Both the position numbers and the translations under genes were made by a program. From a virus (lineage: Duplodnaviria > Caudoviricetes): a stretch of 38,800 nucleotides of DNA. The notes under the pieces were generated by a model, which saw only the letters and a program-made list of their open reading frames with translations, was not told the DNA's origin and did not search any database. The stretch spans positions 1-38,800 of IMG/VR virus record IMGVR_UViG_3300017655_000013; one strand, 5' to 3'. Numbering within the stretch: position 1 is the stretch's first letter; each line of letters starts with the position of its first letter. This document shows positions 241 through 17,725 of this stretch, piece by piece.

Positions 241-268
241 GCAGGTCCGTCGCCAGCCTAGCGCGCCT

Positions 269-1200: not shown

Positions 1201-1202
1201 CA

Positions 1203-2330: not shown

Positions 2331-2332
2331 GA

Positions 2333-2689
2333 CTACGACCCTTCGCGCACGCCGGCGAGCGCGGCGTCAATGCGCTGCAGCGCGGTCTCGACCTGGCCGA
2401 CATAGTCGGGGCCAACCTCACCGGACGCGTGCCGCGCAATCGCCCCTCGGCAGATGTAGCCGCCGTCGCAAGCGGCGTTGTTCGCCAGCTCGGCGGCCGG
2501 ACGCCTGATCGTCTTGGCCGCCGCGATCAGGTCATCGACGGCGGCATCGCGAGCCCGGCGCTCGATCAGTTCGGCCGCCATCGACTGGACGACATCCAGG
2601 GCAAATAGTTTGGCCCGCCGGTTAGCCCCAAGGGCATCTTCGACGCGGCGTTTGATGGCCTCGACATCCACCGGCTTCTGCGCGCTCAT
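2333..2689 (-). CDS. hypothetical protein
   Basis: ATG (MSAQKPV) overlaps the gemA stop (ATGA). Confidence 0.7.
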   Translation of the reverse strand: MSAQKPVDVEAIKRRVEDALGANRRAKLFALDVVQSMAAELIERRARDAAVDDLIAAAKTIRRPAAELANNAACDGGYICRGAIARHASGEVGPDYVGQVETALQRIDAALAGVREGS

Positions 2690-3324
2690 GCCATGTCCTC
2701 CTGTATCAGTCGCTCGCGTAGGCGCTCGTTGATGCGCTCCATCAGCGCGCGCGAACGCCTCCACCAGCGCGGCAGGTCGCTGGTCATCGCGTCGATGTCG
2801 CGACAACGGAGCTTGAGCGCGGCCGTGAGCCGGTCGAACTCGGCGGTCTGCGCGCGCTTGATCTGCTCGACATCGAGCGCGGCGACGATCGCGCGCAGCT
2901 GGTCTTTTTTGCACCACGCAACGAACGGGACGCCGAACATGCGCTTTGCGATCGCGTCCGCGTACGCCCAGGCCAAGCCCATGCTCGCCAGCTGCGCCTC
3001 GATCTTGGCAATCTCGTCCGGAAGCTGGGCGAAGTTCCGCGGCTTGCCGGGGTAGCGCTTTCCCGACCGCGGCTGTGGGTCGTCGTCGATATCCGCGCCC
3101 TTGCTGCGCAGCTCCTCGATGACCGCACTTCGCTGCGACGGCGTCATGTCCGCGCTGCTGTCACACGCATCGCCGTGCGCGACGGAAACGCGCCGCAGCA
3201 GCGCCCGATAGGTGTCCTCGTCAATGCGCAACTGCGTGCGGCCGACGTGGATCGCAGTGATCTGCTGACGGCGCCGCGCGGCGGCGGCAGACACGACCTT
3301 GGGGCTCTTGGTTCGGGCGCTCAT
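2686..3324 (-). CDS. gemA: GemA / Mu gp16 family (DUF1018) protein
   Basis: ITAIHVGRTQLRIDEDTYRALL, SSADMT, KIEAQL and WAYADAIAKRMFGV motifs; ATGA coupling. Confidence 0.9.
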   Translation of the reverse strand: MSARTKSPKVVSAAAARRRQQITAIHVGRTQLRIDEDTYRALLRRVSVAHGDACDSSADMTPSQRSAVIEELRSKGADIDDDPQPRSGKRYPGKPRNFAQLPDEIAKIEAQLASMGLAWAYADAIAKRMFGVPFVAWCKKDQLRAIVAALDVEQIKRAQTAEFDRLTAALKLRCRDIDAMTSDLPRWWRRSRALMERINERLRERLIQEDMA

Positions 3325-3575
3325 TTCCCGCGCTCCCGGCCCTTGAGGCGCGGAATGCGCTGCGACCCGATGCGCGACACACGCAGCTCGAACTCGATCA
3401 CCGCCGCGGCCTGTCCGCGGACCGGGTCCAGGGTGAATCGGGTGAACGTCCGCCCGTCGCGGAGCCCCTTCAACACGACCAGCCATAGGTCGTTCGCGAA
3501 GAGGTACTCGTTGGCTCTGAGCGGCACGTCGACGCCATCGGGCACGCCGGATGATTTTGCGCGGGTCGTGCTCAT
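3321..3575 (-). CDS. hypothetical protein
   Basis: 84 aa, ATGA-coupled on both sides. Confidence 0.7.
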   Translation of the reverse strand: MSTTRAKSSGVPDGVDVPLRANEYLFANDLWLVVLKGLRDGRTFTRFTLDPVRGQAAAVIEFELRVSRIGSQRIPRLKGRERGK

Positions 3576-3925
3576 GGCCGGACACGCTCCAGGTCCGCAG
3601 CGTCGAAACTCGGAACGTCACACCAAGCGAGGGTGATCCCGTGAGCTCGATCCGGCGGCCAGCCCTCGGACTCGTCCAGCTCACGCTGCGCGAGCTCGAT
3701 GCTCTCGTACGCGAGATAGTGCTGGAGGAAGACCAACGCGGCACGGCGCGCCGCGGCTTCGATGGGATCATCATCGGCGGCGGCCAGCACCGCGTCGGCT
3801 CCCGTCCAGAAGCGATTGATCTCATGAGCGAGCTCAGCCGTGAGCTTCGAGAGGTCTACATCAAGCGCCACGGTCAGGTCCATGCCGGTCGCGAATATGA
3901 ATCGCTTCTTTTCAGCGGTTGACAT
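3572..3925 (-). CDS. DUF2528-like phage protein
   Basis: EINRFW and ESEGWP motifs; start MSTAEKKRF. Confidence 0.7.
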   Translation of the reverse strand: MSTAEKKRFIFATGMDLTVALDVDLSKLTAELAHEINRFWTGADAVLAAADDDPIEAAARRAALVFLQHYLAYESIELAQRELDESEGWPPDRAHGITLAWCDVPSFDAADLERVRP

Positions 3926-4544
3926 CGGTCTCGACCTCGCGTGGGATGAAATCGGGCCGCGGCGGAACGACGACGTTGTCGTTGTCGCTGGCACTGAAAT
4001 GGACCGCCATCGCCCACTGGTACGCTTCAATTCGCTGCTCCGGCGACCATGTGGCGACGACCGCTTCGGTTGGGTCTGTGTCGGCGACGAGCAGCAGTGC
4101 GGTGACAACCACGGGGACCGATGGAACGGTGACCAGTTCGAGCGCGAACGTGCGCTTCGCGGCCTGCGCGTAGCCGGCGGCGTCGAGCAGCTCTTCCGTC
4201 ATGTGGTCGAGCCAGGCCGGCAGCGAAAGGTCGCGCCGGTCCAGGCTGGTGCCGTACTTCTTGCGACCGGCAGCGTCGCGCCGGCGCAGCAGCTGGACTA
4301 GATGCCCAGTGACCTCGGAAACATCGCTCGCCTCGGCCGGCGGGAGACCGCCCTTCGGCAGGAAAGGCGGCACGCCTACCGCGTCCGCCGCCATCGGCTC
4401 GACCGAAAGCCGGATCAGCTGCTGCCGAATCTGCCAACACAGGTCCGTGCCGGGCGTCTGCGCTCCGTCCGGCCCTTCCCACTGCGGCGCAATCTGGTCG
4501 AAGTAATCGGCCAAGCCTTGCAGGTACTCGCGCGTCAGTTCCAT
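3912..4544 (-). CDS. multi-domain protein with a possible all-alpha NTP-pyrophosphohydrolase-like segment
   Basis: RDAAGRKKYGTSLDRRDLSLPAWLDHMTEELLDAAGY (GxxKYG...EExxD); separate C-terminal WxxEQR...HFSASDN...PPRP module. Confidence 0.65.
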   Translation of the reverse strand: MELTREYLQGLADYFDQIAPQWEGPDGAQTPGTDLCWQIRQQLIRLSVEPMAADAVGVPPFLPKGGLPPAEASDVSEVTGHLVQLLRRRDAAGRKKYGTSLDRRDLSLPAWLDHMTEELLDAAGYAQAAKRTFALELVTVPSVPVVVTALLLVADTDPTEAVVATWSPEQRIEAYQWAMAVHFSASDNDNVVVPPRPDFIPREVETDVNR

Positions 4545-4912
4545 GGCGCGCCTCCGGCGGTTGTGAACCGGTTCCGCCGACAGTCGAGAGCGACGAACGG
4601 CTCGTCGTCCGGCAACTGGTCGAACAGCACCAGGCCGCACTCGGCGTAGCCGCCGATGTGGAACCCGCCGCGCGTAACGTGCAGCACGACGTGTCCATCG
4701 GTGCGGGGCGGCCGATAGCCGTACGCGAGCACGGTCGGGTCGATCGCGCAGTCGATCATCACGACCCCGGTGCTCGTCGGCGCGTAGAACGTGTGCGCCG
4801 TGAGCTGGCAGCCGGTCCACGACTCGATGTACGCGTCGCGGTACACGGCGACGCCAGCGGCGCTTGCCGACGACGTCGCGAACAGCATGAAAACCAAGAC
4901 CAAGGCACGCAT
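4535..4912 (-). CDS. putative exported protein (signal peptide, 4 Cys)
   Basis: MRALVLVFMLFATSSASA is a Sec-type signal ending in AxA. Confidence 0.7.
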   Translation of the reverse strand: MRALVLVFMLFATSSASAAGVAVYRDAYIESWTGCQLTAHTFYAPTSTGVVMIDCAIDPTVLAYGYRPPRTDGHVVLHVTRGGFHIGGYAECGLVLFDQLPDDEPFVALDCRRNRFTTAGGAPWN

Positions 4913-5400
4913 CACTTGACCTCCACGGGCAGGCAGAAACGACGCGGACGCGGGTAGTTGGCAACGCCGAGCTCGCTGTACATCGTCCCCCAGCTCATGC
5001 CGACGACGTGTTGGCAACAGCCGGAAAGATCGAACAGGACGAACGCATCGGCCGGTGGGTCCGGATCGACGCCTGGCGTCAGCCACGGGCCGAACGACGG
5101 CGGCCGCGTCGCCTCGGCGCATCGCGCGTCGAGCAGCCGGACGCGATGCGCGCCGCTCGCCTCAGTGCGCAGCTCGGCCAGGCCGCGCATGAGCAGCCAG
5201 TCGATCGCCATGCGAAGCGCCAGGCCGGCGTCGGCCAGCGTCTCGACTTCGCCGCCTGCGTCGTGGCTGAGTCCGAAGTCGCGCGTCTCCTCATGCTCGA
5301 TGCCGAGCCCGACCAGATCGTTGAGCGCGGCCTCGTCAGCCATGGCGTACGCACGTTGCGTCAGGCCGTCCACGTGGAAGCAAACCTCGTTCGTGCGCAT
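4912..5400 (-). CDS. hypothetical protein
   Basis: Start MRTNEV follows the DUF3164 stop, with GGAG RBS. Confidence 0.7.
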   Translation of the reverse strand: MRTNEVCFHVDGLTQRAYAMADEAALNDLVGLGIEHEETRDFGLSHDAGGEVETLADAGLALRMAIDWLLMRGLAELRTEASGAHRVRLLDARCAEATRPPSFGPWLTPGVDPDPPADAFVLFDLSGCCQHVVGMSWGTMYSELGVANYPRPRRFCLPVEVK

Positions 5401-5401
5401 G

Positions 5402-6016
5402 TCAGGCTCCCGCGATGTCGAGAGCGATCGGGCGGTACTCGCCGGTGGCATCGTCGCGCTCGTACACGCGGACGTAGCTTTTGCTGCCGACGACCTGCAC
5501 GGCCTCACTGATCGCCAGCATGGCCCGCTGCCAGCGGTCGTCAGCAATATCAAGGCGCCGCAACGCCAGCACGCTGCCCGTGCGGATGTTGCCCTGCTGG
5601 TCGACGCGGAATGCGTCAGCGATCAACGTGCGGAGCTCCGCACGCGCACCTTCGGTCCAGTCACGAAGGCACTCGTCGATCAGCTCCTTTGCCGCCTGCA
5701 GGCGCTCATCGAACACGATGCTTTCAGCGATCGCGCGCACCACCTTGTAGCGGCCGTCGAACGAGAGCAGCGAGACGTTGCCCTTCTGGCCGCCGAGGGA
5801 GACGCCATACTGCTCGGCGCTGAGAGCAACGAATGCCTCGATGTCGCCGAAGGCCCGGCTCTTGTAGTTTCGGAGCGTGTCCCGGGCATTGCGCGCGCCC
5901 TTGACCAGTTCCGCGACGAGCTGGTCGCGGGCCAGGTCGATCGGCTTAATCATGGTCTCCGCGACCAGGCGCCCCTGGGTGTCCTCGCGGAAGCCGTCCG
6001 GTACGGGCTTATTCAT
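5402..6016 (-). CDS. DUF3164 family protein
   Basis: DxQGRLV...IKPIDLARD, GGQKGNVSLLSFDG, FDERLQAAKELIDECL and SKSYVRVYER motifs; AAGGAG RBS; a second in-frame start lies at 6127. Confidence 0.92.
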   Translation of the reverse strand: MNKPVPDGFREDTQGRLVAETMIKPIDLARDQLVAELVKGARNARDTLRNYKSRAFGDIEAFVALSAEQYGVSLGGQKGNVSLLSFDGRYKVVRAIAESIVFDERLQAAKELIDECLRDWTEGARAELRTLIADAFRVDQQGNIRTGSVLALRRLDIADDRWQRAMLAISEAVQVVGSKSYVRVYERDDATGEYRPIALDIAGA

Positions 6017-6114
6017 TTCGATGCTCCTTGTTGGCTGGGCGCGCGTGCAGATGTCGCGCAGGGTGTCTCGGTACCGCTCGCCCACGCAGGGCGGCAGCTC
6101 GTCCTCGTCGTCGA

Positions 6115-6411
6115 TCAGGTGGGCCATGGGCGCGCCTCCAGCTGCTCGGTCCATTCGATGCGCGCGCCGAGGAACTTCGCCATGCAGAGCCGCTCATGGT
6201 CGCGGCCGATCCGCCGCGTCACGCGCGACACCACGCCGACCTGCGGCGGCGGTCGATCGACGCGCAGCACGGCGATGCCGCCGTCGATCTGCACGTCGAG
6301 CACCGTTGCGCCGGTGTCGTTGAGCGCGTACAGCGCGCCCAGCGCCTTGCACAGGCCGGCCTTGACCACGTCGTTGCCGGCGAGCATTGGCAGGGCTACA
6401 GTGGCGCTCAC
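6115..6411 (-). CDS. hypothetical protein
   Basis: 98 aa, GTGA-coupled; ends GARIEW. Confidence 0.7.
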   Translation of the reverse strand: MSATVALPMLAGNDVVKAGLCKALGALYALNDTGATVLDVQIDGGIAVLRVDRPPPQVGVVSRVTRRIGRDHERLCMAKFLGARIEWTEQLEARPWPT

Positions 6412-6740
6412 GGCGTCACCCGCGCGTACAGGCTGCTCGGAGCCCTAGTCATCGCGTGCGTCGGGTCGGGCAGGAGCGAAGGCAGGCAGGTCACGGCGAC
6501 CGGCTGGTCGTCAGCATCGAGCGCTACCCAGCAGGAAGCGCCCGCGTCGTCGAACCTGACGAGCTTCGCCGCCGCCGCCGCCGGTGTCGGCACCGCGGGG
6601 CCGGCATCGGAGACCAGCGTCGAGGCCGGCCCCGAGCAGCGGCCGAGTACGAACACGACAGGCAGCATGCAGAGCAGCGGAATCGTGCGCCAACGCGGCA
6701 CGACGTCCCTTGCGCGTGAGCGGTAGCCGGTGTCGGCCAT
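6408..6740 (-). CDS. hypothetical membrane-anchored protein
   Basis: Hydrophobic stretch IPLLCMLPVVFVLG; directly follows the ATPase gene. Confidence 0.65.
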   Translation of the reverse strand: MADTGYRSRARDVVPRWRTIPLLCMLPVVFVLGRCSGPASTLVSDAGPAVPTPAAAAAKLVRFDDAGASCWVALDADDQPVAVTCLPSLLPDPTHAMTRAPSSLYARVTP

Positions 6741-6741
6741 G

Positions 6742-7923
6742 TCACACCCCCTTCACGACGTCCGCGCTGACGCGCGGCAGGCCGAGCTCGGCGGCGATGT
6801 TGATCGCTGCGGCGAGGACGTTGTTCACGGCCTGCGGGTAGAGCAGCGAACTCGCATTCCGCGAGTCCTGCTTTTGGTCGGTCGCCAGGCGCACGCGAAT
6901 CGCCTCGACCGCGCCGGTGTCGAGCACGCGCGCGATCGGTGTGCCGGCCCGCTCGAAGCGATGCTTGAGGTACGCCTCCAGATCGGCGTTCAGCGGCTGC
7001 AACGTCACAAGCTCGATGCGCTGCACGACTTCGCGCACGTTGGGGTCGTTCTCGTTGAGCTTGAGCGCGAGCTCCGGCTGCCCGAGCAGGATGATGGACA
7101 GCAGGGGCCGCAGGCCGTGCTCCAGCTCCAAGAAGCGCTTAAGGTGCTTCAGCGTCGGGATCGGCAGAGAGTGAGCCTCTTCGATCAGCAGCGTGTGCTG
7201 GAAGCCCGCGCGGCTCGATTCGCGCAGTGTCTTGTGCAGTTGACGGAACCGCGCGTCCTGCGACGAACGCACCGGCTCCAGCGGCGCGACCGTCGCCATG
7301 ATGGCGTCGGCGATGTGCTGCGATTTGAGCGTCTTTCCGCGGGTGTCGTTGTCCTCCATCGCGAGCACGTATGGCTCGATGACGTGTACCGGCAGCTTCT
7401 CCCGCTGGATGCGCTCCATCAGCTCCTTACGGAGCGTCGATTTGCCGGCACCGCTTTCGCCGACGATGCCCATGAATCCGCCGTGGCGGACGGCGTCCCA
7501 CATCGCCTCGCGGACGTAGCGGATGTCGGTGGACAAGAAGACGTCCTCAACCGCCCGAACATCGGCGAGAGGGTCGCGCGAAAGCTCGAAGTGGCGGCGG
7601 GCGGCTTGGGTAATGACGTGCTTACGTAGTAGCATTTCGGCGGTCTCCTGCTGGTCATTGAGGGTCGGCTTGGGATCTGACGCCGTCGCGTTGCCGCGCG
7701 ACGGCGTCGCTTTTTCAGGGGTGAACAGCCCGGCGGCGTCGCCGCCGGCAGCGCGCACGAAGTCGGTGATGCGCCGCTCGATGGCCGTGCGATCCACGCC
7801 GAGCGGAAGATGTCCGTGGTTGAGGAAGCCGTTCAGCGCCGGCCGCGTGATGCCGGCCGCATCGGCAACGGCAGACTGCCGCAGCCCGATCTCGGCGAGC
7901 ATGGACTTGAGGCGCAGGCTCAT
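6742..7923 (-). CDS. transposition AAA+ ATPase (MuB-analogous, ExeA-like) with N-terminal HTH
   Basis: Walker A GESGAGKS, Walker B LLIEEAH, IILLGQPEL; N-terminal LRQSAVADAAGITRPALN HTH. Confidence 0.93.
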   Translation of the reverse strand: MSLRLKSMLAEIGLRQSAVADAAGITRPALNGFLNHGHLPLGVDRTAIERRITDFVRAAGGDAAGLFTPEKATPSRGNATASDPKPTLNDQQETAEMLLRKHVITQAARRHFELSRDPLADVRAVEDVFLSTDIRYVREAMWDAVRHGGFMGIVGESGAGKSTLRKELMERIQREKLPVHVIEPYVLAMEDNDTRGKTLKSQHIADAIMATVAPLEPVRSSQDARFRQLHKTLRESSRAGFQHTLLIEEAHSLPIPTLKHLKRFLELEHGLRPLLSIILLGQPELALKLNENDPNVREVVQRIELVTLQPLNADLEAYLKHRFERAGTPIARVLDTGAVEAIRVRLATDQKQDSRNASSLLYPQAVNNVLAAAINIAAELGLPRVSADVVKGV

Positions 7924-8159
7924 CGCGACCTCTCCGGCAGCTGCGGGCGCCGAACCTGTAGATGCAAATCGGCCGCATCGCGCTCGTAGTGGATGCCGAG
8001 GACGTCAAGCGCAGTCCGCGCGTGCCGGAAGCCTGTTGCCCGGTGCGTGCCGAATCGATCGGAGAGCTCGCGCGCGATGTCAGCAAGTAGGAAGGTCCGA
8101 CGACCGGCATGTCGTTGCACGATGAGAACAGCGCGCATCGCCAGCTCCGTCGTGGTCAT
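7920..8159 (-). CDS. small hypothetical protein (possible HTH)
   Basis: MTTTELAM start; IARELSDRFGTHRATGFRH; ATGA-coupled to the ATPase. Confidence 0.6.
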   Translation of the reverse strand: MTTTELAMRAVLIVQRHAGRRTFLLADIARELSDRFGTHRATGFRHARTALDVLGIHYERDAADLHLQVRRPQLPERSR

Positions 8160-8188
8160 GTCATGCGGCTTTCGGTTCTGGTTCCTGC

Positions 8189-10042
8189 TCAAACTGCACC
8201 TCCGATGGCACGCACGTTCGTCGGCCGCTCGGCGAGCCACGCGGCGATGTCGCTGAGTTGGTCCTCCGGCACCCGCCCGGCGAAGCGGGTCTCGATGCGC
8301 GGCAGGTAGTCCGGCGACCAGGTGCCGCCGGCGCTGCCGACAATCGCGCGCAGGCGCAGCGCGGCCTCGATCGTCGTCAGGTAGACCGTGTCGCGCTGGC
8401 GCGAAAGCATCGCGGCGACGTCCGTCGTCGGGCCGTCGACGATCACTGGTGCGTCGACGCTGATCGGCGTTCCGGCGCGTGGCAGGTGCGCAACCTCGGG
8501 CATCGCTTCCAGTCCGCGATACGGGTCGAGCTGACCGTCGAACGGCAGTGCCTTGGCCTTGCGGCGCTCCGCGGCCTCGGCGTCTGTTGCCGCGCTCATC
8601 GCCGTGCGCTCGACCGCCGCGCGGTTGACGTCGGCCGGCGTCGCCGCATGCGCGCGGTAATCGCCGATCGTCACGCTGCCTTCGGTGAAGCCGTACGCGC
8701 CGCGGGCCAGCCGCGGCACGACGTAGTGCGTGCGGCGGCCGTCAGCGTCGACGCCGAGCACGTGCGCGCTGTCATCGTCCGACCAGGCGCAGCGCGTCAA
8801 GCGCAGCTTCTGGCCGACGATCACGCCCGGCACGCTCGACACGTCGTACTGCGCGCCGCGGTAGCTGACGCGCAGGAACACGTTAACCGTGCGCTCCTCG
8901 GGCGCGGCGACCGCGAGCCGGCGACAGACCGCAGCCTCGGGCGCGATACGCAGCTGGTCGGGCTTGATCGTCATCCACGCGGCGTAGCGCGTGGTCTGCG
9001 TGCGCGTGTGTATCGCGCGGGCGTTGAAGCCTCGCATCCAACGCCAGGCCGCGGCATTGAGCTCGGCCAGTGACCCGACGCGATGAAACCGCAGGCGGTG
9101 CTCGAACTCGCGCTCGATGATGTCGTTGTGCTTCTCGACGCTGCCCTTCGCCCAGGGCTGCCCGGGCTGGTTGATCCACACCGCAACTCCGAGCGCGTCG
9201 CAGAGGTTGTTGAACATCGCGCCGGTGTTGGCGCTGCCTGGATCAACCATGACCATGCGCGGCACGCCGTGGAACGGGTCATGCGCGCCGCGCGGCTGCA
9301 TCGCGGCGATGAACGTGTCGCACAGGTTCTGCCCGGACTCCGCACCGAGCACGTACTCGACGTAGAAAGCGCCCGTGGCGTGATCGACGTGGACGTAGCG
9401 CCACACGCGCTCGTTCGCGATCCGCGCCAGGTTCTTGGGCTTGCCGTCGTAGAACTCGTTAGCCGGCATGACGCGCAAGCCGGCCTCGCGCTTGAGGTAG
9501 TACAGCACGCACAGCGACGGGTCGATCTGCCATGCGTGGTTGGGATGCTCGCTCGCGAGCTCGACCTTGGGCGCCGGCTGGCGCAGCTGATCCGGGTGGA
9601 AGCGGTGGACTTTGAGCGCGCGGTTGATCGCGCTGACGGACATCGGGATGAACTCGCCTGTGTCCGGGTTCACGCGGCCAGCGTTGATGAGGCCGTTCGT
9701 CCGCAACTCGGTGACGGCGTTTTGAAGCGCGGCCAGCTGCTTCTCGGTGCCGCGAACCGTCTCGGAGAGGTACGTGCTGATGATGCGTGCTTCGTCGGCG
9801 GTGAGCGCCGAAGAACCGGCGTCGCTGCGCTGCTTGCGGCCGGCGCGAATCTCGCCGCTCGCGGAGACCGTGCTCGTCCGCGGCAGAAGTGCGGTCAGGC
9901 GGCGGTAGACCGTCGCGATGGACAGGCCGGTGCGCTCCGCGGCCTCGATCGCGATCGCGCGCCGGCCGCCGTGCGGCGTGGCATGCATGCGCTGCGCTGC
10001 CGTGCGCAGCACGTCGTCGATGACGGGGTTCGCGGCGGCCAT
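8189..10042 (-). CDS. DDE transposase (MuA-analogous, B3-type)
   Basis: HPNHAWQID, VDHATG, MVDPGSA and AKGSVE catalytic motifs; N-terminal HTH GLSIATVYRRL and RKQRSDAG. Confidence 0.95.
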   Translation of the reverse strand: MAAANPVIDDVLRTAAQRMHATPHGGRRAIAIEAAERTGLSIATVYRRLTALLPRTSTVSASGEIRAGRKQRSDAGSSALTADEARIISTYLSETVRGTEKQLAALQNAVTELRTNGLINAGRVNPDTGEFIPMSVSAINRALKVHRFHPDQLRQPAPKVELASEHPNHAWQIDPSLCVLYYLKREAGLRVMPANEFYDGKPKNLARIANERVWRYVHVDHATGAFYVEYVLGAESGQNLCDTFIAAMQPRGAHDPFHGVPRMVMVDPGSANTGAMFNNLCDALGVAVWINQPGQPWAKGSVEKHNDIIEREFEHRLRFHRVGSLAELNAAAWRWMRGFNARAIHTRTQTTRYAAWMTIKPDQLRIAPEAAVCRRLAVAAPEERTVNVFLRVSYRGAQYDVSSVPGVIVGQKLRLTRCAWSDDDSAHVLGVDADGRRTHYVVPRLARGAYGFTEGSVTIGDYRAHAATPADVNRAAVERTAMSAATDAEAAERRKAKALPFDGQLDPYRGLEAMPEVAHLPRAGTPISVDAPVIVDGPTTDVAAMLSRQRDTVYLTTIEAALRLRAIVGSAGGTWSPDYLPRIETRFAGRVPEDQLSDIAAWLAERPTNVRAIGGAV

Positions 10043-10045
10043 CGA

Positions 10046-10966
10046 TCAGCCCTCGCCGAGCGTCAGCTTGGCTTCGACGTGCGGGTCGCCCGCGGCGACC
10101 TGCGGGATGCCGAACTCGTCGCGCACAGCCCAAAGCTGCCGCTCAAGCTGGGCAAACACGCCGGCGAGGTAGGGCATGACGTCGGCGCCCTGCTCCTGGG
10201 CGTACTCGACGACTGCGCGGACGCGCGTCTTGAGGCTTGTGGCCTCGCCATCATCGGCCAGGATCGCGCCCTGCAGGCCGAGGACTTCGCCGGTTAGGTC
10301 CGCCAGCAGCGCGTTGCCGACTTCGTCGGGCGTCGCGGCCTTCGCCGCGCGCTTGAGCTTTGCGATTTCTGCGGTCTTGCGCTCGATTTCGCGCTCCCGC
10401 TTTTCCGCGCGCTCGTCCTTGGCGGCCATGTCCGCGCGAGCCTCGCGCAGCTTGGCGCGCAGCTCCTTGACCGAGAGCTGCTCGACGTCGTCCAGGTCCA
10501 GGCCGTGCGTCTCGCCCTTCTCGGCGAGCTCCGCAAACTGTTCCGGCGGCAGGCTGAGCAGCTCGATCAGCTTGGTCTGGCTGTCCGCCGCGGCGAGCAA
10601 ATGTTGAGTTGACGCAACATTTGGGAGAGCTGCGATCCGGCGCGCGGCCTCCATCATGCGCCACGCCTGATCCCGCGCCATGCCCAGGCGGTCCAGGATG
10701 CCGTCCCATTCGCCGTAGGCCGCGCACTCGCGTGCCACGACCAGGAGGCGCCCGGCACGGAGGAAGGATTCGCATCCGCGGCGCAGCTCGCCGCGGATGG
10801 CGGCTTCGTAGTGATCGGGATGCCAAGGCAGTCCGCCGCCGAAGCGCTCGACGACCAGCTCTTGGCGCTGCCGCAGTTCGGCCTCCTGGGCCGCCGTGGC
10901 GGCCGGTGTGGTGCTCAGCTCCGCGACGACGACCTGCGTCGCGGGTTCCAGTTTCTTGCGTGCCAT
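10046..10966 (-). CDS. DUF3102-like protein
   Basis: GRLLVVARE...GEW...LGMARDQAWRMMEAA, TKLIELL, LDDVEQLSVKELRAKLREAR, coiled-coil C-terminus; directly upstream of the transposase. Confidence 0.85.
   Translation of the reverse strand: MARKKLEPATQVVVAELSTTPAATAAQEAELRQRQELVVERFGGGLPWHPDHYEAAIRGELRRGCESFLRAGRLLVVARECAAYGEWDGILDRLGMARDQAWRMMEAARRIAALPNVASTQHLLAAADSQTKLIELLSLPPEQFAELAEKGETHGLDLDDVEQLSVKELRAKLREARADMAAKDERAEKREREIERKTAEIAKLKRAAKAATPDEVGNALLADLTGEVLGLQGAILADDGEATSLKTRVRAVVEYAQEQGADVMPYLAGVFAQLERQLWAVRDEFGIPQVAAGDPHVEAKLTLGEG
10598..10623. repeat. intragenic palindrome CAAATGTTG-N8-CAACATTTG
   Basis: Perfect 9-bp arms; AT-rich island encoding PNVASTQHL in a GC-rich gene. Confidence 0.85.
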
Positions 10967-10986
10967 GTGATCGGGCTCCTCGTGGG

Positions 10987-11292
10987 TCAGATCGGGCGCG
11001 AGTAGCGCCGCGTGGTTTCGTCCAGGCGCGCCTGGACCGTTGCCAGCTCGGCTTGGTGGGCCAGCGCGAGCTGGATGATTCGGGGGGTCAGCCGCCAGCG
11101 GTCTTTGTCGCCGGGCATGCGCTCGGCCAGGCCCTCGTCGGCCAGGACGTCCAGGTCGCGCAGCGTGGTTCCCGGCGACTGCTGGACGGCGTCCGCGAGC
11201 TGCTTGAGGCGCAGGCCGTCGAAGGCGTGGCCCTTGAGCGCGAAGATGAGGCGGAAGGCGCGGCGCGTGCCGGCTTGGGCGGGGGCGCTCAT
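10987..11292 (-). CDS. IclR-type HTH DNA-binding protein
   Basis: RAFRLIFALKGHAFDGLRLKQLADAVQQSPGTTLRDLDVLADEGLAE...WRL winged helix. Confidence 0.85.
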   Translation of the reverse strand: MSAPAQAGTRRAFRLIFALKGHAFDGLRLKQLADAVQQSPGTTLRDLDVLADEGLAERMPGDKDRWRLTPRIIQLALAHQAELATVQARLDETTRRYSRPI

Positions 11293-11516
11293 GCGTCGGC
11301 TCCGCGCCTGGCGTCGCGCAACTGGCGGCGCAGAACGACCAGGTCGCGTTGACGTTCGGCAAGGGCTTCCCACGGGTGATAGGTGTACCCCCGCGACGCC
11401 GCGTACTCCGCGGGTCGCTCCCTGCGCATGCGGTCGTATGAGCGATTCAAGCGGCAATCGCGCAGCGCGTGGCGCACGTCGCGGCGCAGCACATCCACCA
11501 GCTTCTGGCCGCTCAT
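11289..11516 (-). CDS. hypothetical protein
   Basis: 75 aa, ATGA-coupled on both sides. Confidence 0.7.
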   Translation of the reverse strand: MSGQKLVDVLRRDVRHALRDCRLNRSYDRMRRERPAEYAASRGYTYHPWEALAERQRDLVVLRRQLRDARRGADA

Positions 11517-11722
11517 GCCGCCACCTTGAGGCCGGCGGCCTTGATGACCTTGCGGCGCATTGCCTGGCCCTTTGGGCCGTTCCAGGCACCCAGCAGCGCG
11601 TTGCGCGTGTTGGAGATATGCGTGCCGTTTTCACGCGACCAGCGCGTGAGCGTTGTCCCCTGCCGGACGAAGCCGGCTTTGACGGCAAGCAGGAGGTCGC
11701 GACCGGGTTCGATTGCGGTCAT
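11513..11722 (-). CDS. Ner/Cro-like DNA-binding protein
   Basis: First gene of the early operon, divergent from the repressor; VKAGFVRQGTTLTRWSRENG...WNGPKG. Confidence 0.8.
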   Translation of the reverse strand: MTAIEPGRDLLLAVKAGFVRQGTTLTRWSRENGTHISNTRNALLGAWNGPKGQAMRRKVIKAAGLKVAA

Positions 11723-11774
11723 TGGCTGTATCCTGTTCGGGTGTTGGCAAGCCGCATCAGCTACGGCGGGAACA

Positions 11775-11829
11775 ATCATATGTACGCAAATGCGTACATG
11801 TCAACTGGACTAGTACGCGAATGAATACT
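11775..11829 (-). promoter_or_regulatory. early sigma70 promoter with overlapping operators
   Basis: Minus-strand TTGACA (11804-11799), 18 bp, TATGAT (11780-11775); perfect IR ATGTACGCA-AA-TGCGTACAT (11780-11799) fills the spacer; second copy GTACGCGAATGAATAC (11813-11828) covers the repressor ATG. Confidence 0.85.
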
Positions 11830-12285
11830 CCGGGGGAGCGGCTCAAGAGGGAACGTCTGCGCTTGGGTCTTAGCCAAGCGGAGCTCGCCGAGAAGGGTGG
11901 CGTGCTGAGGGGCGCCCAGATCCACTACGAGTCGGACGCGCGGAAGCCGGACGTTGCATACCTGTCGAGGATCGCTTCGGCAGGGGTGGACGTCGGCTAC
12001 GTCATCACGGGAGAGCCGCGTGAGTTCGCGTTGCAGCTATCGCGCATCAGGTATGCCACGCAGACGGCAGCATCTGTCACTACATCGCGCGAAGAGGCCG
12101 CACAGCTACGTGATTCGTTACTCGCGGCAATGGAGTCCGACGAGGCCTCTGCGCTGATCGCGAATTGGGCGAAATGCGATCCCGACAGGCGCGCCACGAT
12201 TAGCCGCATAGCTCAACTCCTGGCGGAGGGGGCTGATCCGATCGAATCAGTCAGGAACCAGATACAGACCGGGGAAAAGTCATGA
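11821..12285 (+). CDS. prophage repressor (XRE HTH)
   Basis: GERLKRERLRLGLSQAELAEKGGV...YESDARKPDVAYL...GVDVGYVITG; divergent from the Ner-like gene. Confidence 0.92.
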   Translation: MNTPGERLKRERLRLGLSQAELAEKGGVLRGAQIHYESDARKPDVAYLSRIASAGVDVGYVITGEPREFALQLSRIRYATQTAASVTTSREEAAQLRDSLLAAMESDEASALIANWAKCDPDRRATISRIAQLLAEGADPIESVRNQIQTGEKS

Positions 12286-12680
12286 GCACTTCAGGCTGGT
12301 GGTTGAGTGTCAGCGTACTTGTCGCGACCACGCTGAGTGGGTGCCAGCAGCCGGATACTGCCCTCGACCAAGACGTCGATTTGGCATTCCGCGTCTGCGC
12401 GGAAGCTCTGAAGTTGACGGCAAAGAATCCGAGCACCGCGAAGGTGCCGCGAGTGAATCCGACAGCGCGCTCCCAGACGAAGCATCGCTACGACTGGAAC
12501 CACGGCGATGGCCTTGCGTTCACGAACGGCTTCGGTGCAGCAGTAGATCAGACCGCATCCTGCATGACTGAGGGCGGTCATATCTCATTGCTGTCTATCA
12601 ACGGCAAGGTGTTGCCCGAAGAACAGCTTGCGCTACTGCGTGTGAACGCGCTGGTGCGAGTGTCGAAGTCGACGCGTTGA
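12282..12680 (+). CDS. lipoprotein coupled to the repressor gene
   Basis: Lipobox LSGC after a hydrophobic leader; ATGA overlap with the repressor stop. Confidence 0.8.
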   Translation: MSTSGWWLSVSVLVATTLSGCQQPDTALDQDVDLAFRVCAEALKLTAKNPSTAKVPRVNPTARSQTKHRYDWNHGDGLAFTNGFGAAVDQTASCMTEGGHISLLSINGKVLPEEQLALLRVNALVRVSKSTR

Positions 12681-12884
12681 TATGGCGTCGGGCGACACGT
12701 CCGCGAGTACGAAATTTCCTACATCGCGTGCCGGCATGGACGTCAAATGAAAGCCTCGGCAATGCGGGCACCGGTAGACCCGTAGCCGCCGCACGTTGAA
12801 CTTCCCCGCGCACCGCGCGGCTGACGCCAAGGCGTCACTTTCGCTCTTGTGCCGGCGCTTCCGATGACAGATCGCAACGCTCAT
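12633..12884 (-). CDS. small basic zinc-finger-like protein
   Basis: CHRKRRH...YRCPHCRGFHLTS motif; start MSVAIC. Confidence 0.65.
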   Translation of the reverse strand: MSVAICHRKRRHKSESDALASAARCAGKFNVRRLRVYRCPHCRGFHLTSMPARDVGNFVLADVSPDAISTRRLRHSHQRVHTQ

Positions 12885-12916
12885 TCGCGCATGCTCGCGC
12901 GCGCGCGACGCCGCGT

Positions 12917-12962
12917 CCTGTGAACGCGGCCCCAAGACCTTTCATCGCTTGATCCGGACACT
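12917..12962 (+). promoter_or_regulatory. putative activator-dependent late promoter (lysis operon)
   Basis: CCTGTGAACGCGGCCCCAAGACCTTT-N14-GACACT; 25/26 identical to 20768-20793 with the same spacing. Confidence 0.8.
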
Positions 12963-13019
12963 CCGGTCGGCGTGCGCAGCATCGGGCTGCGCAACCGTCT
13001 AGTCCGATCCGGAGGCGTC

Positions 13020-13310
13020 ATGAAAGACCTGTTCCTGCGGCTGCGCGCGCTGATCGATGCACAGCCGATCTTCTTGCTGTTCCTCGCTACGTTCGCTTTC
13101 GTCGCCTTCAGCGCACCGGTGAAGATCGGTCTCGCGCTGTGGGGCATCAGCAAGCTCGCGCTGTTCGCCTTCGCGGGAGCCTGGCTGTGCAAGCAGCTGT
13201 TCCGCTCGTACGCGCCGCCGGGCGATCCCGGCATCGTCGAGGGAACGCTGTGGAAGCTCAAGGCATGGATCGTCGCCGCATCGATCGTGGCCGGGGCGTT
13301 GCTGCCGTGA
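13020..13310 (+). CDS. putative holin
   Basis: Three hydrophobic segments, GGAGG RBS, first gene of the lysis cassette. Confidence 0.8.
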   Translation: MKDLFLRLRALIDAQPIFLLFLATFAFVAFSAPVKIGLALWGISKLALFAFAGAWLCKQLFRSYAPPGDPGIVEGTLWKLKAWIVAASIVAGALLP

Positions 13311-13966
13311 AGCAGTTCGCGCGCGTCTGCCTCGTCTTCGTCGCGCTGATCGCGCTCGCGGCGCTGATCTACCGCGAAGCGATCGCGGGGCCGGCACTGC
13401 CCGACCCCGTCGCGCAGGTCCGGATTCCGCCGGCTTCGGCTACGTACCGCATCCGCCTGGAGCGCGAGGCCGGCGCGCTGTTCGGCCTCAAGGCGCCGAT
13501 CGCACGGTTCGCCGGCCAGATTCACACGGAGTCCGGCTGGGAGCCGGAGGCGGAAAGCCCCTACGCGCAGGGCCTGTCGCAGTTCACGCCAGCAACGGCG
13601 CGCTGGTTGCCGGACGTCTGCCCGAGCGTTGGAGAGCCCGACCCTTGGGACCCCAATTGGTCGATTCGGGCGATGGTCTGCTACGACCACTACCTGTGGT
13701 CGCGCGCACCAGGTGCAACCGCCTGCGACCGTTGGGCCTTCGCGCTGAGCGCCTACAACGGCGGTGAGGGCTGGACCCGACGTGACCGAACGCTGGCGTC
13801 GGCAAAGGGAGCCGATTCTGCCCGCTGGTTTGGGCACGTCGAACTCCACACATCCCGCGCCCGCTGGGCGCGGGATGAGAACCGCGCGTATGTGCGCCGC
13901 ATCCTGCTGGTGCTGGAGCCGGCCTACATCGCTGCCGGCTGGCCCGGTGTGGCGGTCTGCCCATGA
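13307..13966 (+). CDS. endolysin, lytic transglycosylase (SLT) with N-terminal TM/SAR-like segment
   Basis: QIHTESGW, AQGLSQFTPAT, ALSAYNGG and ENRAYVRRI motifs; GTG start overlaps the holin stop. Confidence 0.93.
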   Translation: MKQFARVCLVFVALIALAALIYREAIAGPALPDPVAQVRIPPASATYRIRLEREAGALFGLKAPIARFAGQIHTESGWEPEAESPYAQGLSQFTPATARWLPDVCPSVGEPDPWDPNWSIRAMVCYDHYLWSRAPGATACDRWAFALSAYNGGEGWTRRDRTLASAKGADSARWFGHVELHTSRARWARDENRAYVRRILLVLEPAYIAAGWPGVAVCP

Positions 13967-14415
13967 TTCGGCTTGCCGTCGAAGCGCTGCTCGGTCTGGC
14001 CGTCGTACTGCTCTCCGGCGGCATCGGCTACGCCTGGCGCGGCGCGCAGGACGCCGAGGCGGTCGCGCAGGCGAATGCCGCGGTGACCAGCGCGAGCGGC
14101 AGCTTCGCAGCGGCGGCCGACAGCCAGCTCAAGGCGATCGCGTTGCTCGAAACGCGCCTGGCCGAAATCCGCGCGCGACACGAACAGTTCCGCGAGCTCG
14201 CCGACGACGAGCTCGATGCTCGCATCGAGGCGAACGCCACCCTTGCCGCTGAAGTCGCGCGGCTCACGAACCAGATCAAAGGCACCGCACATGATCCGTC
14301 CTGCGCCCCTCTCGCTGCTCTGCCTGTGTGCACTGCTGTGGCTGACCGGCTGTGGCCTCAAGCCGATACGTCCCGCGCCGGTGCGCGTGCTGACGGTGGA
14401 GTACCCGGTGATTGA
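13963..14415 (+). CDS. i-spanin (Rz-like)
   Basis: N-terminal TM followed by coiled coil; follows the endolysin. Confidence 0.8.
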   Translation: MIRLAVEALLGLAVVLLSGGIGYAWRGAQDAEAVAQANAAVTSASGSFAAAADSQLKAIALLETRLAEIRARHEQFRELADDELDARIEANATLAAEVARLTNQIKGTAHDPSCAPLAALPVCTAVADRLWPQADTSRAGARADGGVPGD

Positions 14416-14617
14416 CTACCGGCCCGTCCCGCGCGTGCTGACCGATCCGCTCGCCGAGCCGGCACCGCCGCCCGCGCAATGCCGGGTCGGCGGCGCACCG
14501 GCGGTCTGCGCGCTCGACGGCCTGGCGACGATCCCCGCCTGGCGCGGCGTGGTGCAGCAGTGCAACGCGGACCGCGCGCGGGCCGCCCTGCTCGGAGGCG
14601 GCGATGGCGCGCAATAA
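14291..14617 (+). CDS. o-spanin (Rz1-like lipoprotein)
   Basis: Lipobox LTGC, Pro-rich, QCNADRA; overlaps the i-spanin in another frame. Confidence 0.85.
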   Translation: MIRPAPLSLLCLCALLWLTGCGLKPIRPAPVRVLTVEYPVIDYRPVPRVLTDPLAEPAPPPAQCRVGGAPAVCALDGLATIPAWRGVVQQCNADRARAALLGGGDGAQ

Positions 14618-14801
14618 GCGAGACGTGCTCGAAACGATGGCCGCCCGCATGGACGGCCTGGCCTACGAGCTGGAGCGCCAGTCCCGCAACCTGGAGCACT
14701 CGGCCAAGGAGCGCACGATGCTCGACCTGCGCGCCCGTGAGCGCCGGGCCTGCGCCCAGGAGCTGCGCCTGGAAGCCGCCAAGGTGACGAATGATCGATG
14801 A
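14604..14801 (+). CDS. hypothetical protein
   Basis: 65 aa, GGAGG RBS, coupled. Confidence 0.65.
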   Translation: MARNKRDVLETMAARMDGLAYELERQSRNLEHSAKERTMLDLRARERRACAQELRLEAAKVTNDR

Positions 14802-15027
14802 CGTCGAGCGCGGTCAGGAAGCCGCCCAGCAGTTCACCGACGACGCGATCGCCGCGGCACGTGCGCGTATCGCTGCGTCGTTCGAGCCGCGCGACCCGGC
14901 GGTCGAGCGGCAGTGCATCGACTGCGATGCCGAGATAGAGCCCGAGCGCCTGCAGGCGCTCGGGAAGACCAGCCGCTGCGCGGCCTGTGCCCATGAACAC
15001 GCAAGGCTGTGCCGAGGGAAGCAATGA
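14791..15027 (+). CDS. TraR/DksA C4-type zinc-finger protein
   Basis: DDVERGQE...CIDCDAEIEPERLQAL...RCAAC. Confidence 0.9.
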   Translation: MIDDVERGQEAAQQFTDDAIAAARARIAASFEPRDPAVERQCIDCDAEIEPERLQALGKTSRCAACAHEHARLCRGKQ

Positions 15028-15341
15028 TTTCGATCAGCACGACGAACGCAATCGTCCTTTTTCTGGCCTTCGCGGGGCTGGTTGCTGGATTTGGCCGCAT
15101 CCTGGTCTCGCAGTTCGAGACGCGGATGAACGACCGTTTCTTAGCCGTGACTAAAGCTCTGGCCGACGAGTCTGCCCGCTTGCGGGATCTGACGAACCGC
15201 GTCGACCAGCTGCATCACGCCTTGCCGCTGGAGTACGTGCGGCGAGAGGACTGGACTCGGTTCAGTGCCCTGATCGACGCAAAGCTGGACCGAGTCGCCG
15301 AGTTAGTACACAGCTCGCTTGCAAGGAACTACCGATCGTGA
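15024..15341 (+). CDS. conserved Mu-like membrane-anchored protein (position of Mu gp25)
   Basis: N-terminal TM, coiled coil, LPLEYVRREDW...KLD. Confidence 0.75.
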   Translation: MISISTTNAIVLFLAFAGLVAGFGRILVSQFETRMNDRFLAVTKALADESARLRDLTNRVDQLHHALPLEYVRREDWTRFSALIDAKLDRVAELVHSSLARNYRS

Positions 15342-15649
15342 ACGAGATCGACATCGAAAAGGCCCGGCGGGAAGAGACGCGCTGGCGGATTCTGAAAGTT
15401 CTGGACGCCGGCCGGCCGCTGTCCATGCCGGAGACGCTCATCCTGCGCACCTTGCACGACGTCAGCATGCCGGTGACGCCCCATGCCTTGCGCCGCGAGC
15501 TGGACTACCTGGAGGACCGCAAGCTGGTGACCATCACCGGCAAAGACGGCCCGACCTGGCAAGCCGAGCTGACGCACTACGGCGTGGACATCGTCGAGTA
15601 CACGACGGAGTGCTTCCCGGGCATCGCTCGCCCGAAGAAATGGTTCTAG
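15338..15649 (+). CDS. Mu gp26-like winged-helix protein
   Basis: RREETRWRIL...LRRELDYLEDRKLV...LTHYGVDIVEY...PGIARP. Confidence 0.85.
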   Translation: MNEIDIEKARREETRWRILKVLDAGRPLSMPETLILRTLHDVSMPVTPHALRRELDYLEDRKLVTITGKDGPTWQAELTHYGVDIVEYTTECFPGIARPKKWF

Positions 15650-15657
15650 GGGGGCGC

Positions 15658-15837
15658 ATGAACGAGGTAGACCTGCAGGTCGCGATCCGTGCCAAGGCGG
15701 AAGAGCTGCGCTTGGCAGTAGAGGCTGTCGAGTCAACACCCGGTGCCGATCGGCGCGCAGCTGCGATTGCCCGCACGCACTTCGAGACCGGCATGCTGTG
15801 GCTCAAGCAGGCGCTCCCGTCGCGCGAGGAATCGTGA
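15658..15837 (+). CDS. Acb2/Tad1-like helical-hairpin mini-protein
   Basis: RRAAAIARTHFETGMLWLKQAL resembles the Acb2 C-terminal helix as I recall it; TGATG-coupled to the next gene. Confidence 0.6.
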   Translation: MNEVDLQVAIRAKAEELRLAVEAVESTPGADRRAAAIARTHFETGMLWLKQALPSREES

Positions 15838-16355
15838 TGCCGGCACCGAGCAAGGTCGACCAGCTACCCGAAGACATCCGGCAGGCGCTCGAACAGCGCC
15901 TGATCGGACAAGCGTTCTCGGGCTACGTGTCCCTGTCGGAGTGGCTGGCCGAGCAGGGATTCGAGATCACGAAATCGTCGCTGCAGCGGTGGGGCAGCCG
16001 CTTTGAGGATCGCGTGCGTGCGCTCAAGGTCTCAACCGACCAGGCCAAGGCGATCGTGGCCGCTTCCCCTGACGACGAGGGCGCGATGTCCGATGCGCTC
16101 ATGCGGCTCACGCAGGAGCGCATGTTCCAGGTGCTGCTGGAGCTCGAAGTCGATCCGGACACCATCGAGCTGCCGAAGCTCGCGCGGGCGATCGCCGACA
16201 TGAATCGCAGCACGATCACGCTGCGTCGATACCAGACCGAGGTCCGGGCGCGCGTCGCGGCAGCGGCCGAGCGTGTGGAGAAGGTAGGCGCCAGCGCCGG
16301 CATCACGCCGGAGACGCTCGCCCGCATCCGACAGGAAATCTACGGAGTCGTATGA
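15837..16355 (+). CDS. DUF3486 / Mu gp27-like protein (putative small terminase)
   Basis: SKVDQLPEDIR...FSGYVSLSEWL...ITKSSLQRWG...IRQEIYG. Confidence 0.88.
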   Translation: MPAPSKVDQLPEDIRQALEQRLIGQAFSGYVSLSEWLAEQGFEITKSSLQRWGSRFEDRVRALKVSTDQAKAIVAASPDDEGAMSDALMRLTQERMFQVLLELEVDPDTIELPKLARAIADMNRSTITLRRYQTEVRARVAAAAERVEKVGASAGITPETLARIRQEIYGVV

Positions 16356-17725
16356 GCCAGCCCGCGGTCCCGCTCTACGACTTCCAGGGCCAGTGGCTGC
16401 GTGACCGCAGCCGCTTCAAGCTCGGCATGTTCGCGCGGCAGACCGGCAAGACGTTCACGACGACACTGGAGATCGTCGACGACAGCTTCGAGGCCATCGT
16501 CAAAGGGCGCCGCACGCGCTGGGTGATCCTGAGCCGAGGCGAACGGCAGGCCAAGGAAGCGATGGAGGAAGGCGTCAAGCGGCACTGCCAGGCGTACCAG
16601 CTTGGCGTGCAATCGTTCGAGGCCGAGTACAAGGGTGAGCTCGGCACGTATCGCATGCTGGAGGTCGAGCTGCCGGGCGGCACGCGCATCACCTCGCTAC
16701 CGGCGAACCCGGACACAGCGCGCGGCTTCAGCGCCAACGTCTACCTGGACGAGTTCGCGTTCCACAAGGACTCCAAGGCGATCTGGGGCGCGCTGTTTCC
16801 GGTCGTGTCCAACGGATGGAAGCTGCGCATCACCTCGACGCCGAACGGCAAGGGCAACAAGTTCTACGAGTTGGCGACGGGTAAGGACGCCGTCTGGAGC
16901 CGCCACGAAGTCGACATCTACCGCGCCGTGCGCGATGGCCTGCCGCGCAACATCGACGAGCTGCGCGCCGCGCTCAACGATCCGGACCTGTGGGCGCAGG
17001 AGTACGAGCTGAAATGGCTCGACGAAGCGAGCGCGTGGCTGTCGTTCGAGCTCATCAACGACAACGAACACGAGCTGGCCGGCAACCCGGACCTGTACGA
17101 GGGCGGCGACTGCTACATCGGCATCGACATCGGCGCGCGACGCGACCTGTTCGTGCTGTGGGTCAAGGAGCGCGTCGGCGACGTGCTGTGGACGCGCGAA
17201 ATTCATGCCGAGCGCCGCCTGAAGTTCGCGGCTCAAGACGAGCTGCTCGACAACGCGATGCGCAAGTACCGCGTGCGGGGCGTCTGGATGGACCAGACCG
17301 GCATGGGCGAGAAGCCCGTCGAGGACGCGAAGCGGCGCTACGGCGAACACCGCGTGCACGGCGTGCTGTTCAACGCGGCCAGCAAGCAGTACCTGGCCAC
17401 GGTGGGCAAAGAGTCGTTCGAGGATCGCCGCGAGCGCATTCCGCAGGGCGACCAGCCGCTCCGCGCAGACCTGCACAAGCTGCGCCGCGAGACCGGCCCG
17501 ACAGGCAACGTGCGCTTCGTAGCCGAGAGCGACGCGGCCGGCCATGCCGACCGTGCATGGGCGTGCTTTCTCGCAACGGCGGCCGCGAGCGAGCCTGCAT
17601 CCATCATCGATTTTCAATCAACCGGTCCGCGCGAGACGTTCGATCAAGACGGCGTCATCGTTCGGCCGACCAGCACGGGCTGGGGCACGATCCCCGGCCG
17701 GAATGACTTCGGAGGCTACCTGTGA
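16352..17725 (+). CDS. terminase large subunit (Mu gp28-like)
   Basis: ARQTGKT, LPANPDTARG, YLDEFAF, TSTPNG, IGIDIG, DQTGMG and GHADRAWA motifs. Confidence 0.96.
   Translation: MSQPAVPLYDFQGQWLRDRSRFKLGMFARQTGKTFTTTLEIVDDSFEAIVKGRRTRWVILSRGERQAKEAMEEGVKRHCQAYQLGVQSFEAEYKGELGTYRMLEVELPGGTRITSLPANPDTARGFSANVYLDEFAFHKDSKAIWGALFPVVSNGWKLRITSTPNGKGNKFYELATGKDAVWSRHEVDIYRAVRDGLPRNIDELRAALNDPDLWAQEYELKWLDEASAWLSFELINDNEHELAGNPDLYEGGDCYIGIDIGARRDLFVLWVKERVGDVLWTREIHAERRLKFAAQDELLDNAMRKYRVRGVWMDQTGMGEKPVEDAKRRYGEHRVHGVLFNAASKQYLATVGKESFEDRRERIPQGDQPLRADLHKLRRETGPTGNVRFVAESDAAGHADRAWACFLATAAASEPASIIDFQSTGPRETFDQDGVIVRPTSTGWGTIPGRNDFGGYL

Follow-up and report, generated by a model that had tools for sequence, protein, structure and literature searches.

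Background

Palindrome readers of the ParB fold, sites that lie in the reader's own gene, and the enhancer of phage Mu are all known already. The O protein of phage lambda recognizes, in an allele-specific way, the ori iterons lying within its own gene, and the Roi protein of phage HK022 has its binding site inside roi. Roi has been implicated in lytic growth, according to the available part of the report (PMC3430580). ParB, Noc and KorB bind the palindromic sites parS, NBS and OB, and the available part of their description ascribes specificity to a few residues of the recognition helix and of a later helix (PMC7383237). The Mu enhancer (E, or IAS), read by the transposase MuA, is an internal cis element of the early region that is proposed, in the available parts of two papers, to act together with the phage ends (PMC5977238, PMC8705779). 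A conflict between phages and satellites over a sequence-specific DNA binder, with satellite countermeasures, has been described for VIPR in the available part of a preprint (bioRxiv 10.64898/2026.10.15.759431). Transposable phages of the B3 and BcepMu type have the gene order, rve transposase, ATPase and end boxes of the locus presented here, as well as the same gene with a perfect dyad (B3 ORF13, BcepMu gp10), and their records annotate neither that dyad nor a function for these two genes.

The window, by which we mean the whole stretch of 38,800 nucleotides analysed, carries such a prophage, with a palindrome inside the DUF3102-like gene that precedes the transposase. The encoded protein resembles ParB, Noc and KorB in predicted fold, in having a palindromic site and in a specificity that appears to come from a few residues of two helices, but no match to an N-terminal CTPase domain and no ParA partner were seen, the 26-bp site lies in the reader's own gene, and there are dozens of specificities instead of one. 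In contrast to the Mu enhancer, the predicted reader is a separate protein and not the transposase, the element is one dyad in coding sequence that varies between phages, and it also occurs beside transposases that keep an enhancer-binding domain. Lambda O and Roi have an unrelated fold, whereas here we find a single perfect dyad and a mapped, putatively modular code in transposable phages. VIPR works by RNA-guided silencing and RNA decoys, whereas the present case would involve a protein code and arrays of DNA sites. A literature search that left most subscription papers and supplements outside its range returned no description of the dyad, the code or the satellite-like elements reported below.

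From comparison of homologous loci, relocated sites and phage ends, we take the dyad to be the likely docking site of the protein that it partly encodes. We further propose, with a probability of roughly 0.45, that it gives each phage a private licence, acting in cis, to transpose its own genome, and that satellites exploit this licence.

Results and discussion

The prophage spans 122..38677, begins and ends with TG...CA, and has end motifs as in B3, BcepMu and phiSHP3; assembly contigs break at 121 and at 38677/38678. Its rve transposase, AAA ATPase, leftward early operon and TG...CA ends with boxes are those of B3/BcepMu-like phages. A 6-bp target duplication is a further trait of this group (PMC8705779, available part). 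No target duplication is present in the window's flanks, and the right site, in its empty form, continues into other host DNA; the left and right junctions therefore probably arose in separate insertions. Transposase A (8189..10042, minus strand) lies directly downstream of the DUF3102-like gene; rve is its sole domain match at E<=0.001, with no Mu enhancer-binding domain (PF02316). The ATPase, transposition protein B (6742..7923, minus strand), was assigned by a domain match. The left-end boxes GTGAGATAAAT (131-141) and GTGCGAAAAAT (153-163), together 131..163 on the plus strand, and the right-end boxes TTTATCGCGC at 38637 and 38659 (38637..38668, plus strand) are conserved at the ends of relatives and are likely transposase sites.

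Four other features of the prophage deserve mention. A dyad ATGTACGCAAATGCGTACAT at 11780-11799, between the ner-like and repressor genes, where relatives have TGCA-rich dyads, is likely an operator. CCGG/CGGG repeats in steps of 10-11 bp occupy 164-212, occur at the left end only, both here and in relatives as well as in three of the satellite-like elements (L255, L224, L225), and are a candidate packaging signal. An inverted repeat with 15-bp arms and a 6-base loop lies upstream of the methylase gene (37693-37728) and gave no useful phage match. The tape-measure-like ORF at 27033-33080 encodes 2015 aa, against 846-1185 aa in B3, BcepMu and phiSHP3.

The DUF3102-like gene (10046..10966, minus strand; PHROG 1748) encodes 306 aa, with a predicted ParB/KorB-like helical DNA-binding domain at about 45-180, a coiled coil at 166-236 and a helical C-terminus. 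The name given in the initial annotation is fair by homology through relatives: PF11300 does not match the window protein (P0001) at E<=0.1, yet at this threshold it matches 53 of 62 aligned homologs, B3 ORF13 is annotated DUF3102, and Atlas assigns the window protein to DUF3102 with 0.94. It is matched by 31 phage records, B3 ORF13 and BcepMu gp10 among them. The structure model (pLDDT 88) shows a weak likeness over residues ~47-207 to the ParB DNA-binding domain (Z 6.2), Spo0J (5.6) and KorB (5.3), in a range, Z<8, where such scores are common. Foldseek matches were weak too (E>=0.18 overall, 0.3-1.5 for ParB, Noc and KorB), and Atlas also listed likenesses to DUF1016_N, DUF222 and Plasmid_parti_N. 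A sequence search of the PDB returned nothing relevant and no ParB, Noc or KorB match; the N-terminal ParB/Srx CTPase domain gave no Pfam match, and only ~45 residues precede the helical domain. The protein is not a ParB, and judging from the model it may work as the DNA-binding domain of ParB does. By helix order, 98-113 would correspond to helix α4, 117-127, with the peptide encoded by the palindrome, to α5, and the helix beginning at 166 to α8; in ParB, α4, α6 and α8 contact DNA (PMC7383237, available part).

The palindrome at 10598-10623, CAAATGTTG-AGTTGACG-CAACATTTG, has perfect 9-bp arms. It can also be written on the coding strand as a loop-less 26-bp dyad (10598..10623), CAAAT-GTTGCGTC/AACTCAAC-ATTTG, in which 11 of 13 positions pair and the break falls in an otherwise nearly invariant C-G pair. 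Both mismatches recur in a contig from a second sample (X3, 10265-10852, 0 differences). The palindrome encodes PNVASTQHL, residues 115-123, and only 2 of these nine codons end in G or C, against 85% in the gene; the unusual codon choice pointed out in the initial annotation is therefore real, although the codon list then given omitted GCG.

The dyad is a property of the family. We compared 79 homologous loci found by protein similarity, with the window itself, duplicates and the unpublished locus L016 counted among them; three more had no coverage. At 78 of them the same codons form a 26-bp dyad, CAAAW-N8/N8'-WTTTG, that pairs at 11 or more of 13 positions (59 at 13, nine at 12, ten at 11, and one locus unpaired). 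The dyads comprise 36 distinct sequences, all in one frame, and pairing ends at position 13; B3, BcepMu, phiE255 and PhiKM carry perfect copies. When synonymous codons were drawn at random, pairing as good as that observed had P<=5e-4 at 35 of 35 distinct sites. In 27 chosen distinct sites 97.4% of cells were paired and 85 two-sided changes were counted, against 25-37% pairing in slid controls. The innermost pairs could not form in a hairpin, yet 47 and 51 of 53 sites keep them, by means of several pair types; the set is partly pattern-selected, so that its arm and core columns are inflated. G-T accounted for 6 of 30 dyad mismatches. The retention of the innermost pairs and the paucity of G-T indicate a double-stranded dyad with no stem-loop. 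Any palindrome can fold, and template switching would account for both arms changing at once, so that the dyad might be an RNA or single-stranded DNA hairpin, or a by-product of such switching, with any covariation of residues arising inside the protein, where monomer contacts are possible. A structured RNA stem-loop was rejected since there is neither loop freedom nor an excess of G-U wobble pairs, and the hairpin or by-product account is also opposed by the matches of the helix to sites outside the gene and of non-coding arrays to phage types, described below. We consider it the most improbable of the explanations weighed here.

In a wider survey PF11300 was found at 25 loci out of 301 Pseudomonadota genomes: the 26-bp form occurs at about ten of them and a 25-bp form with identical arms at five or six, and seven (L117, L122, L129-L132, L138) have no dyad. 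The transposase lies directly 3' of the gene in all 73 homolog loci with at least 1.5 kb of downstream sequence, and a Mu-type transposase is the next gene in 8 of 8 distant PF11300 genes of the 26-bp class in which a downstream gene was scanned. These Mu-type transposases retain their enhancer-binding domain, so that the site is not merely a stand-in for the Mu enhancer. Four PF11300 genes of the 25-bp class (L113, L115, L119, L123) have no transposase match within 3 kb; together with the 7 of 25 loci that have no dyad, they indicate that transposition cannot be the use of the site in the whole family. Two loci, L118 and L120, carry the site CAAATGTTTCACCGGTGAAACATTTG, which we take to resemble the parS consensus with two extra central bases. 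A 76-bp unit is repeated four times in tandem at L110:1563-1815 (G002:C58), every copy containing a 25-bp dyad CAAATTTGCGGCGGCCGCAAATTTG that may or may not belong to this family, and at L028:4352-4410 a decayed second copy directly follows the intragenic dyad in the same gene.

The variable bases of the dyad change together with residues elsewhere in the protein. The pairs that covary most strongly across 120 homologs link positions coded by the palindrome to residues 98, 99 and 102, and to 166 and 167. The former lie in codons 97-103 (ARDQAWR; 10658..10678, minus strand), at the start of the predicted helix-turn-helix recognition helix, and covary with the outer variable bases; the latter are codons 166-167 (VK; 10466..10471, minus strand), at the start of helix 166-210, and covary with the central bases. 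For the outer bases, GCG-T goes with E.RQAQR, GTT-G with.RDQA.R, CGT-G with E.SQARR and CAT-T with SQPQA.R. For the centre, ACGT goes with V166, CGCG with R166 followed by D, E or A (34 of 34), GCGC with F/Y-R and AATT with F-H. We then left the covarying columns out of the tree. A centre starting with C went together with R166 in 118 of 118 proteins, with 24 changes on this tree and agreement in 14 of 14 independent pairs (p 1.2e-4). The choice of A117S118 or V117A118 followed R99 in 77 of 78 proteins (about 15 of 15 pairs, p 6e-5), and V117 followed R or K98 in 114 of 119 (22 of 24 pairs), while cross-controls between the outer and central modules gave p values of 0.06-1. Tables made at the DNA level were consistent with this protein-level code. 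When 65 cases were held out, the recognition helix predicted the site triplet correctly in 42, against a null mean of 6.7 and a null maximum of 17.

It had been suggested that site and reader change together and give each phage a private address. This idea gains support from the 36 distinct dyads, which covary with 98/99/102 and 166/167 beyond phylogeny, so that the protein likely reads its own site. The accompanying suggestion that the overlapping peptide is the reader is not favoured, since the covarying residues lie outside the palindrome-coded residues 115-123 and the helix predicts displaced sites as well. A modular code of 98/99/102 plus 166/167, with the overlapping peptide as a passenger, is likely. 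Very probably the protein acts as a dimer of ParB/KorB fold, in which the recognition helix would read the outer bases and the start of helix 166-210 the central ones, the peptide being a tolerant passenger. That the protein binds its own dyad has a high probability from these patterns, and is common to the readings of the site as licence, transcriptional element, immunity mark or one of three addresses. Contacts of 117-121 with 98-102 or 166 inside the protein may also be a source of the covariation, against which only the relocation of sites speaks.

Of the 68 distinct sites that a pattern scan returned, 48 lie in the gene and 20 outside it, many of the latter in frame in repressor linkers. 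The relocated copies lie mostly in or beside repressor or ner genes, and in several phages with a displaced site the DUF3102-like gene has no palindrome. In phages whose gene dyad is lost or mismatched and which have a copy in the repressor region, the helix predicted the free triplet of the displaced site in 8 of 10 cases, a score reached by 3 of 50,000 permutations; the ten cases were hand-picked, three had more than one candidate site, and the misses were G335 and G329. With a smaller training set 7 of 10 were predicted. At L064 and L065 the helix fits the outside copy and not the copy in the gene. G343, outside the scored ten, has the helix ERTFAAR and, by eye, a fitting GTT-G site just upstream of the gene. 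This link between helix and site outside the gene speaks against a purely intramolecular origin of the covariation. Two complete phages, G331 and L030, have their own site intact plus a non-matching site in the repressor gene. The repressor gene at L230:5050-5114 (G324) has two in-frame dyads, one of which is the perfect form of the window site (PNVASTQHL), and the repressor of G342 carries the same perfect site.

All three motifs listed in the initial annotation, one in the gene and one near each end, are present at the coordinates given there. The left motif (213..240, plus strand) has TGACGCAACATTTG (14 bp) in common with the palindrome and contains one exact 13-bp half-site at 225-237; its core, TTGCG-N5-CGCAA, occupies 217-231 and lies 96 bp inside the end. 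The right motif (38605..38629, plus strand; core 38606-38620, 72 bp from the end) shares 19 of 20 non-spacer bases with the left motif and differs from the half-site by two mismatches. Half-sites are spaced 27 bp at the ends and 26 bp in the gene. The right copy does overlap a hairpin after the methylase stop (-27.8 kcal/mol, z -3.8), but a simple terminator scan made no call there. GACGCAACATTTG, a pattern picked post hoc, has 4 matches in the window at up to two mismatches, against 0.63 expected and none as many in 100 shuffles.

It had been proposed from these motifs that the protein binds its own gene and both ends, and so pairs or addresses the ends. The window itself fits such a model: it has an exact left half-site, a right one with two mismatches, the best own-match (13 left, 11 right) among 27 termini, and a decayed intragenic copy, as in phages whose site has moved (L064, G334). 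The relatives do not. Their ends (the left ends of 18 relatives and the located right ends) all have a dyad resembling TTGCR-N5-YGCAA, some 96 bp from the left and 72 bp from the right end and mostly with GCAA or GAAA in front of it, whatever the intragenic palindrome. Across 25 located termini of relatives (13 distinct left and 12 right), the best match averaged 7.36 of 13 bases to the own half-site and 7.31 to that of others, with 5 of the 12 right-end windows centred on an adjacent dyad further upstream, which is 92-93 bp inside the end. Whole-arm scans are free of this flaw, and in them the own 11-base half-site at up to one mismatch was near no located end of relatives; the ends of YO107_2 (L013), G343, L030, L034 and L070 were not located. 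The same address at both ends is thus not borne out, lack of covariation being what the initial annotation itself had set against it. Furthermore, the other GTT-G readers L079 and G344 have no such own-match at their ends, L024 has a left end matching the window's site at 12 of 13 bases though its gene carries another palindrome type, and the spacing at the ends is 27 and not 26 bp. The right end of phiSHP3 also bears CGCAACATT. The window is an outlier because the core shared by the family's ends, TTGCG/CGCAA, is by chance part of its palindrome type (GTTGCG). We regard the three-site model as very improbable; the left half-site of the window may have a use specific to its lineage. The end motifs and the intragenic palindrome are two different things, and the end motif is shared family-wide. 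In fuller form it reads GCAA-N5/6-TTGC-N7-GCAA, lies at 217-231 and 38606-38620 in the window, and is retained by the satellites described next. By eye, the consensus sequences of IHF, Fis and sigma-54 do not fit it.

Four elements of 8.5-9.1 kb with both B3-type ends contain dyads copied from many phage types (L255:113-9240, L224:369-9308, L225:6896-15395, L227:746-9408). In tblastn searches with queries from the window, B3 and BcepMu, which very divergent genes could escape, they gave no match to transposase, ATPase, DUF3102, TerL, portal or capsid. All four encode a tape measure and a Mor-like protein, L225 and L227 also have a truncated head-protease-like gene, L225 has a 6-bp target duplication, and each of the four retains the subterminal end dyad. 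With defined ends and without replication or head genes of their own, they are apparently satellites of transposable phages, and apparently undescribed ones; L255 and L224 are 80% identical, so that the four represent about three lineages. Excluding three overlapping doubtful entries, they hold 17 (L255, seven of them from a tandem repeat), 13 (L224), 13 (L225) and 5 (L227) dyads, of both classes. The arrays of L255 and L224 start 129 bp from the left end, proceed in steps of about 45 bp with some spacers alike, and are followed downstream by the Mor-like activator, while the sites of L225 and L227 are spread over 0.3-5.3 kb. L226 and L230 together with these four elements supplied 38 array-type sites that were not pattern-selected. 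An intragenic half-site is matched exactly by 20 of them and with at most one difference by 35, where the null gives 0.5% and 5.8%. To collect different sites makes sense only if the readers differ in specificity. Arrays are rare: a strict two-site pattern was found in none of 401 Gammaproteobacteria genomes, a Mor-like query returned only two elements already known, and plasmids gave none. Several foreign dyads between the repressor and lysis genes were also seen in phages with their own early genes (L226:5990-6440, G327, and L191:1393-1526).

These elements bear on three readings of the site. A bound dimer could be a roadblock that limits the transposase operon, with the copies in repressor genes and arrays serving as sensors, induced by a matching phage, or as titrating decoys. 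The position of the site in the gene that immediately precedes A and B, the relocation of copies mostly to repressor and ner genes, the Mor-like activator after the arrays of L255 and L224, the existence of a 25-bp class without transposase, and the example of KorB, a ParB-fold repressor, would all fit. But simple autoregulation needs neither 24 or more key changes on the tree nor a private address, and sites spread over 0.3-5.3 kb in L225 and L227 do not belong to one promoter; such a transcriptional role is possible but rather unlikely. Alternatively, a bound site might mark DNA as a non-target for the phage's own transposition machinery, and satellites and prophages would keep foreign sites for protection. 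Self-insertion immunity exists in transposable phages (PMC5977238, available part). The non-cognate sites in the repressor genes of G331 and L030 would shield a vital gene. In Mu both end boxes confer immunity, however, and the 9-kb elements already have both; furthermore, the 25-bp class without transposase is left unexplained, and we judge a role in immunity improbable.

We favor the cis licence over these rivals because the gene stands before the transposase, the end boxes are near-universal, and elements that would borrow a transposase carry key rings of sites. The 25-bp class without a nearby transposase and the intact enhancer-binding domains of the Mu-type cases are points against it. 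As transposase boxes and subterminal dyad are near-identical across the family, the ends could not distinguish self from non-self, and the end motifs would be a separate, shared signal outside the private address. The protein on its dyad would supply the self information in cis, and the transposase would act on DNA with a matching site. Phages would escape parasites by a joint change of key and lock, and satellites would respond by gathering keys and so would likely be copied by many helpers. Stated as a whole, a lock and key with an in-frame own site, a three-to-five-residue code re-keyed repeatedly, a licensed genome and 9-kb Mu-like satellites with helper key rings is an account that we hold tentatively, at a little below even odds.

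Conclusions

If this account is true, a function and a decodable recognition code would be assigned to a conserved gene that neighbours the transposase in B3, BcepMu and many other phages of the Mu-like kind. Each such gene would be labelled with its own target, so that protein-DNA specificity could be read from genomes alone, and the family would constitute a natural library in which a small ParB-like domain is paired with its sites in dozens of likely orthogonal combinations. Such a self/non-self system would be encoded in protein and easy to decode, and the satellite arrays would list the likely helpers of non-autonomous elements. It suggests how phages with near-identical ends may separate their own DNA from that of a parasite.
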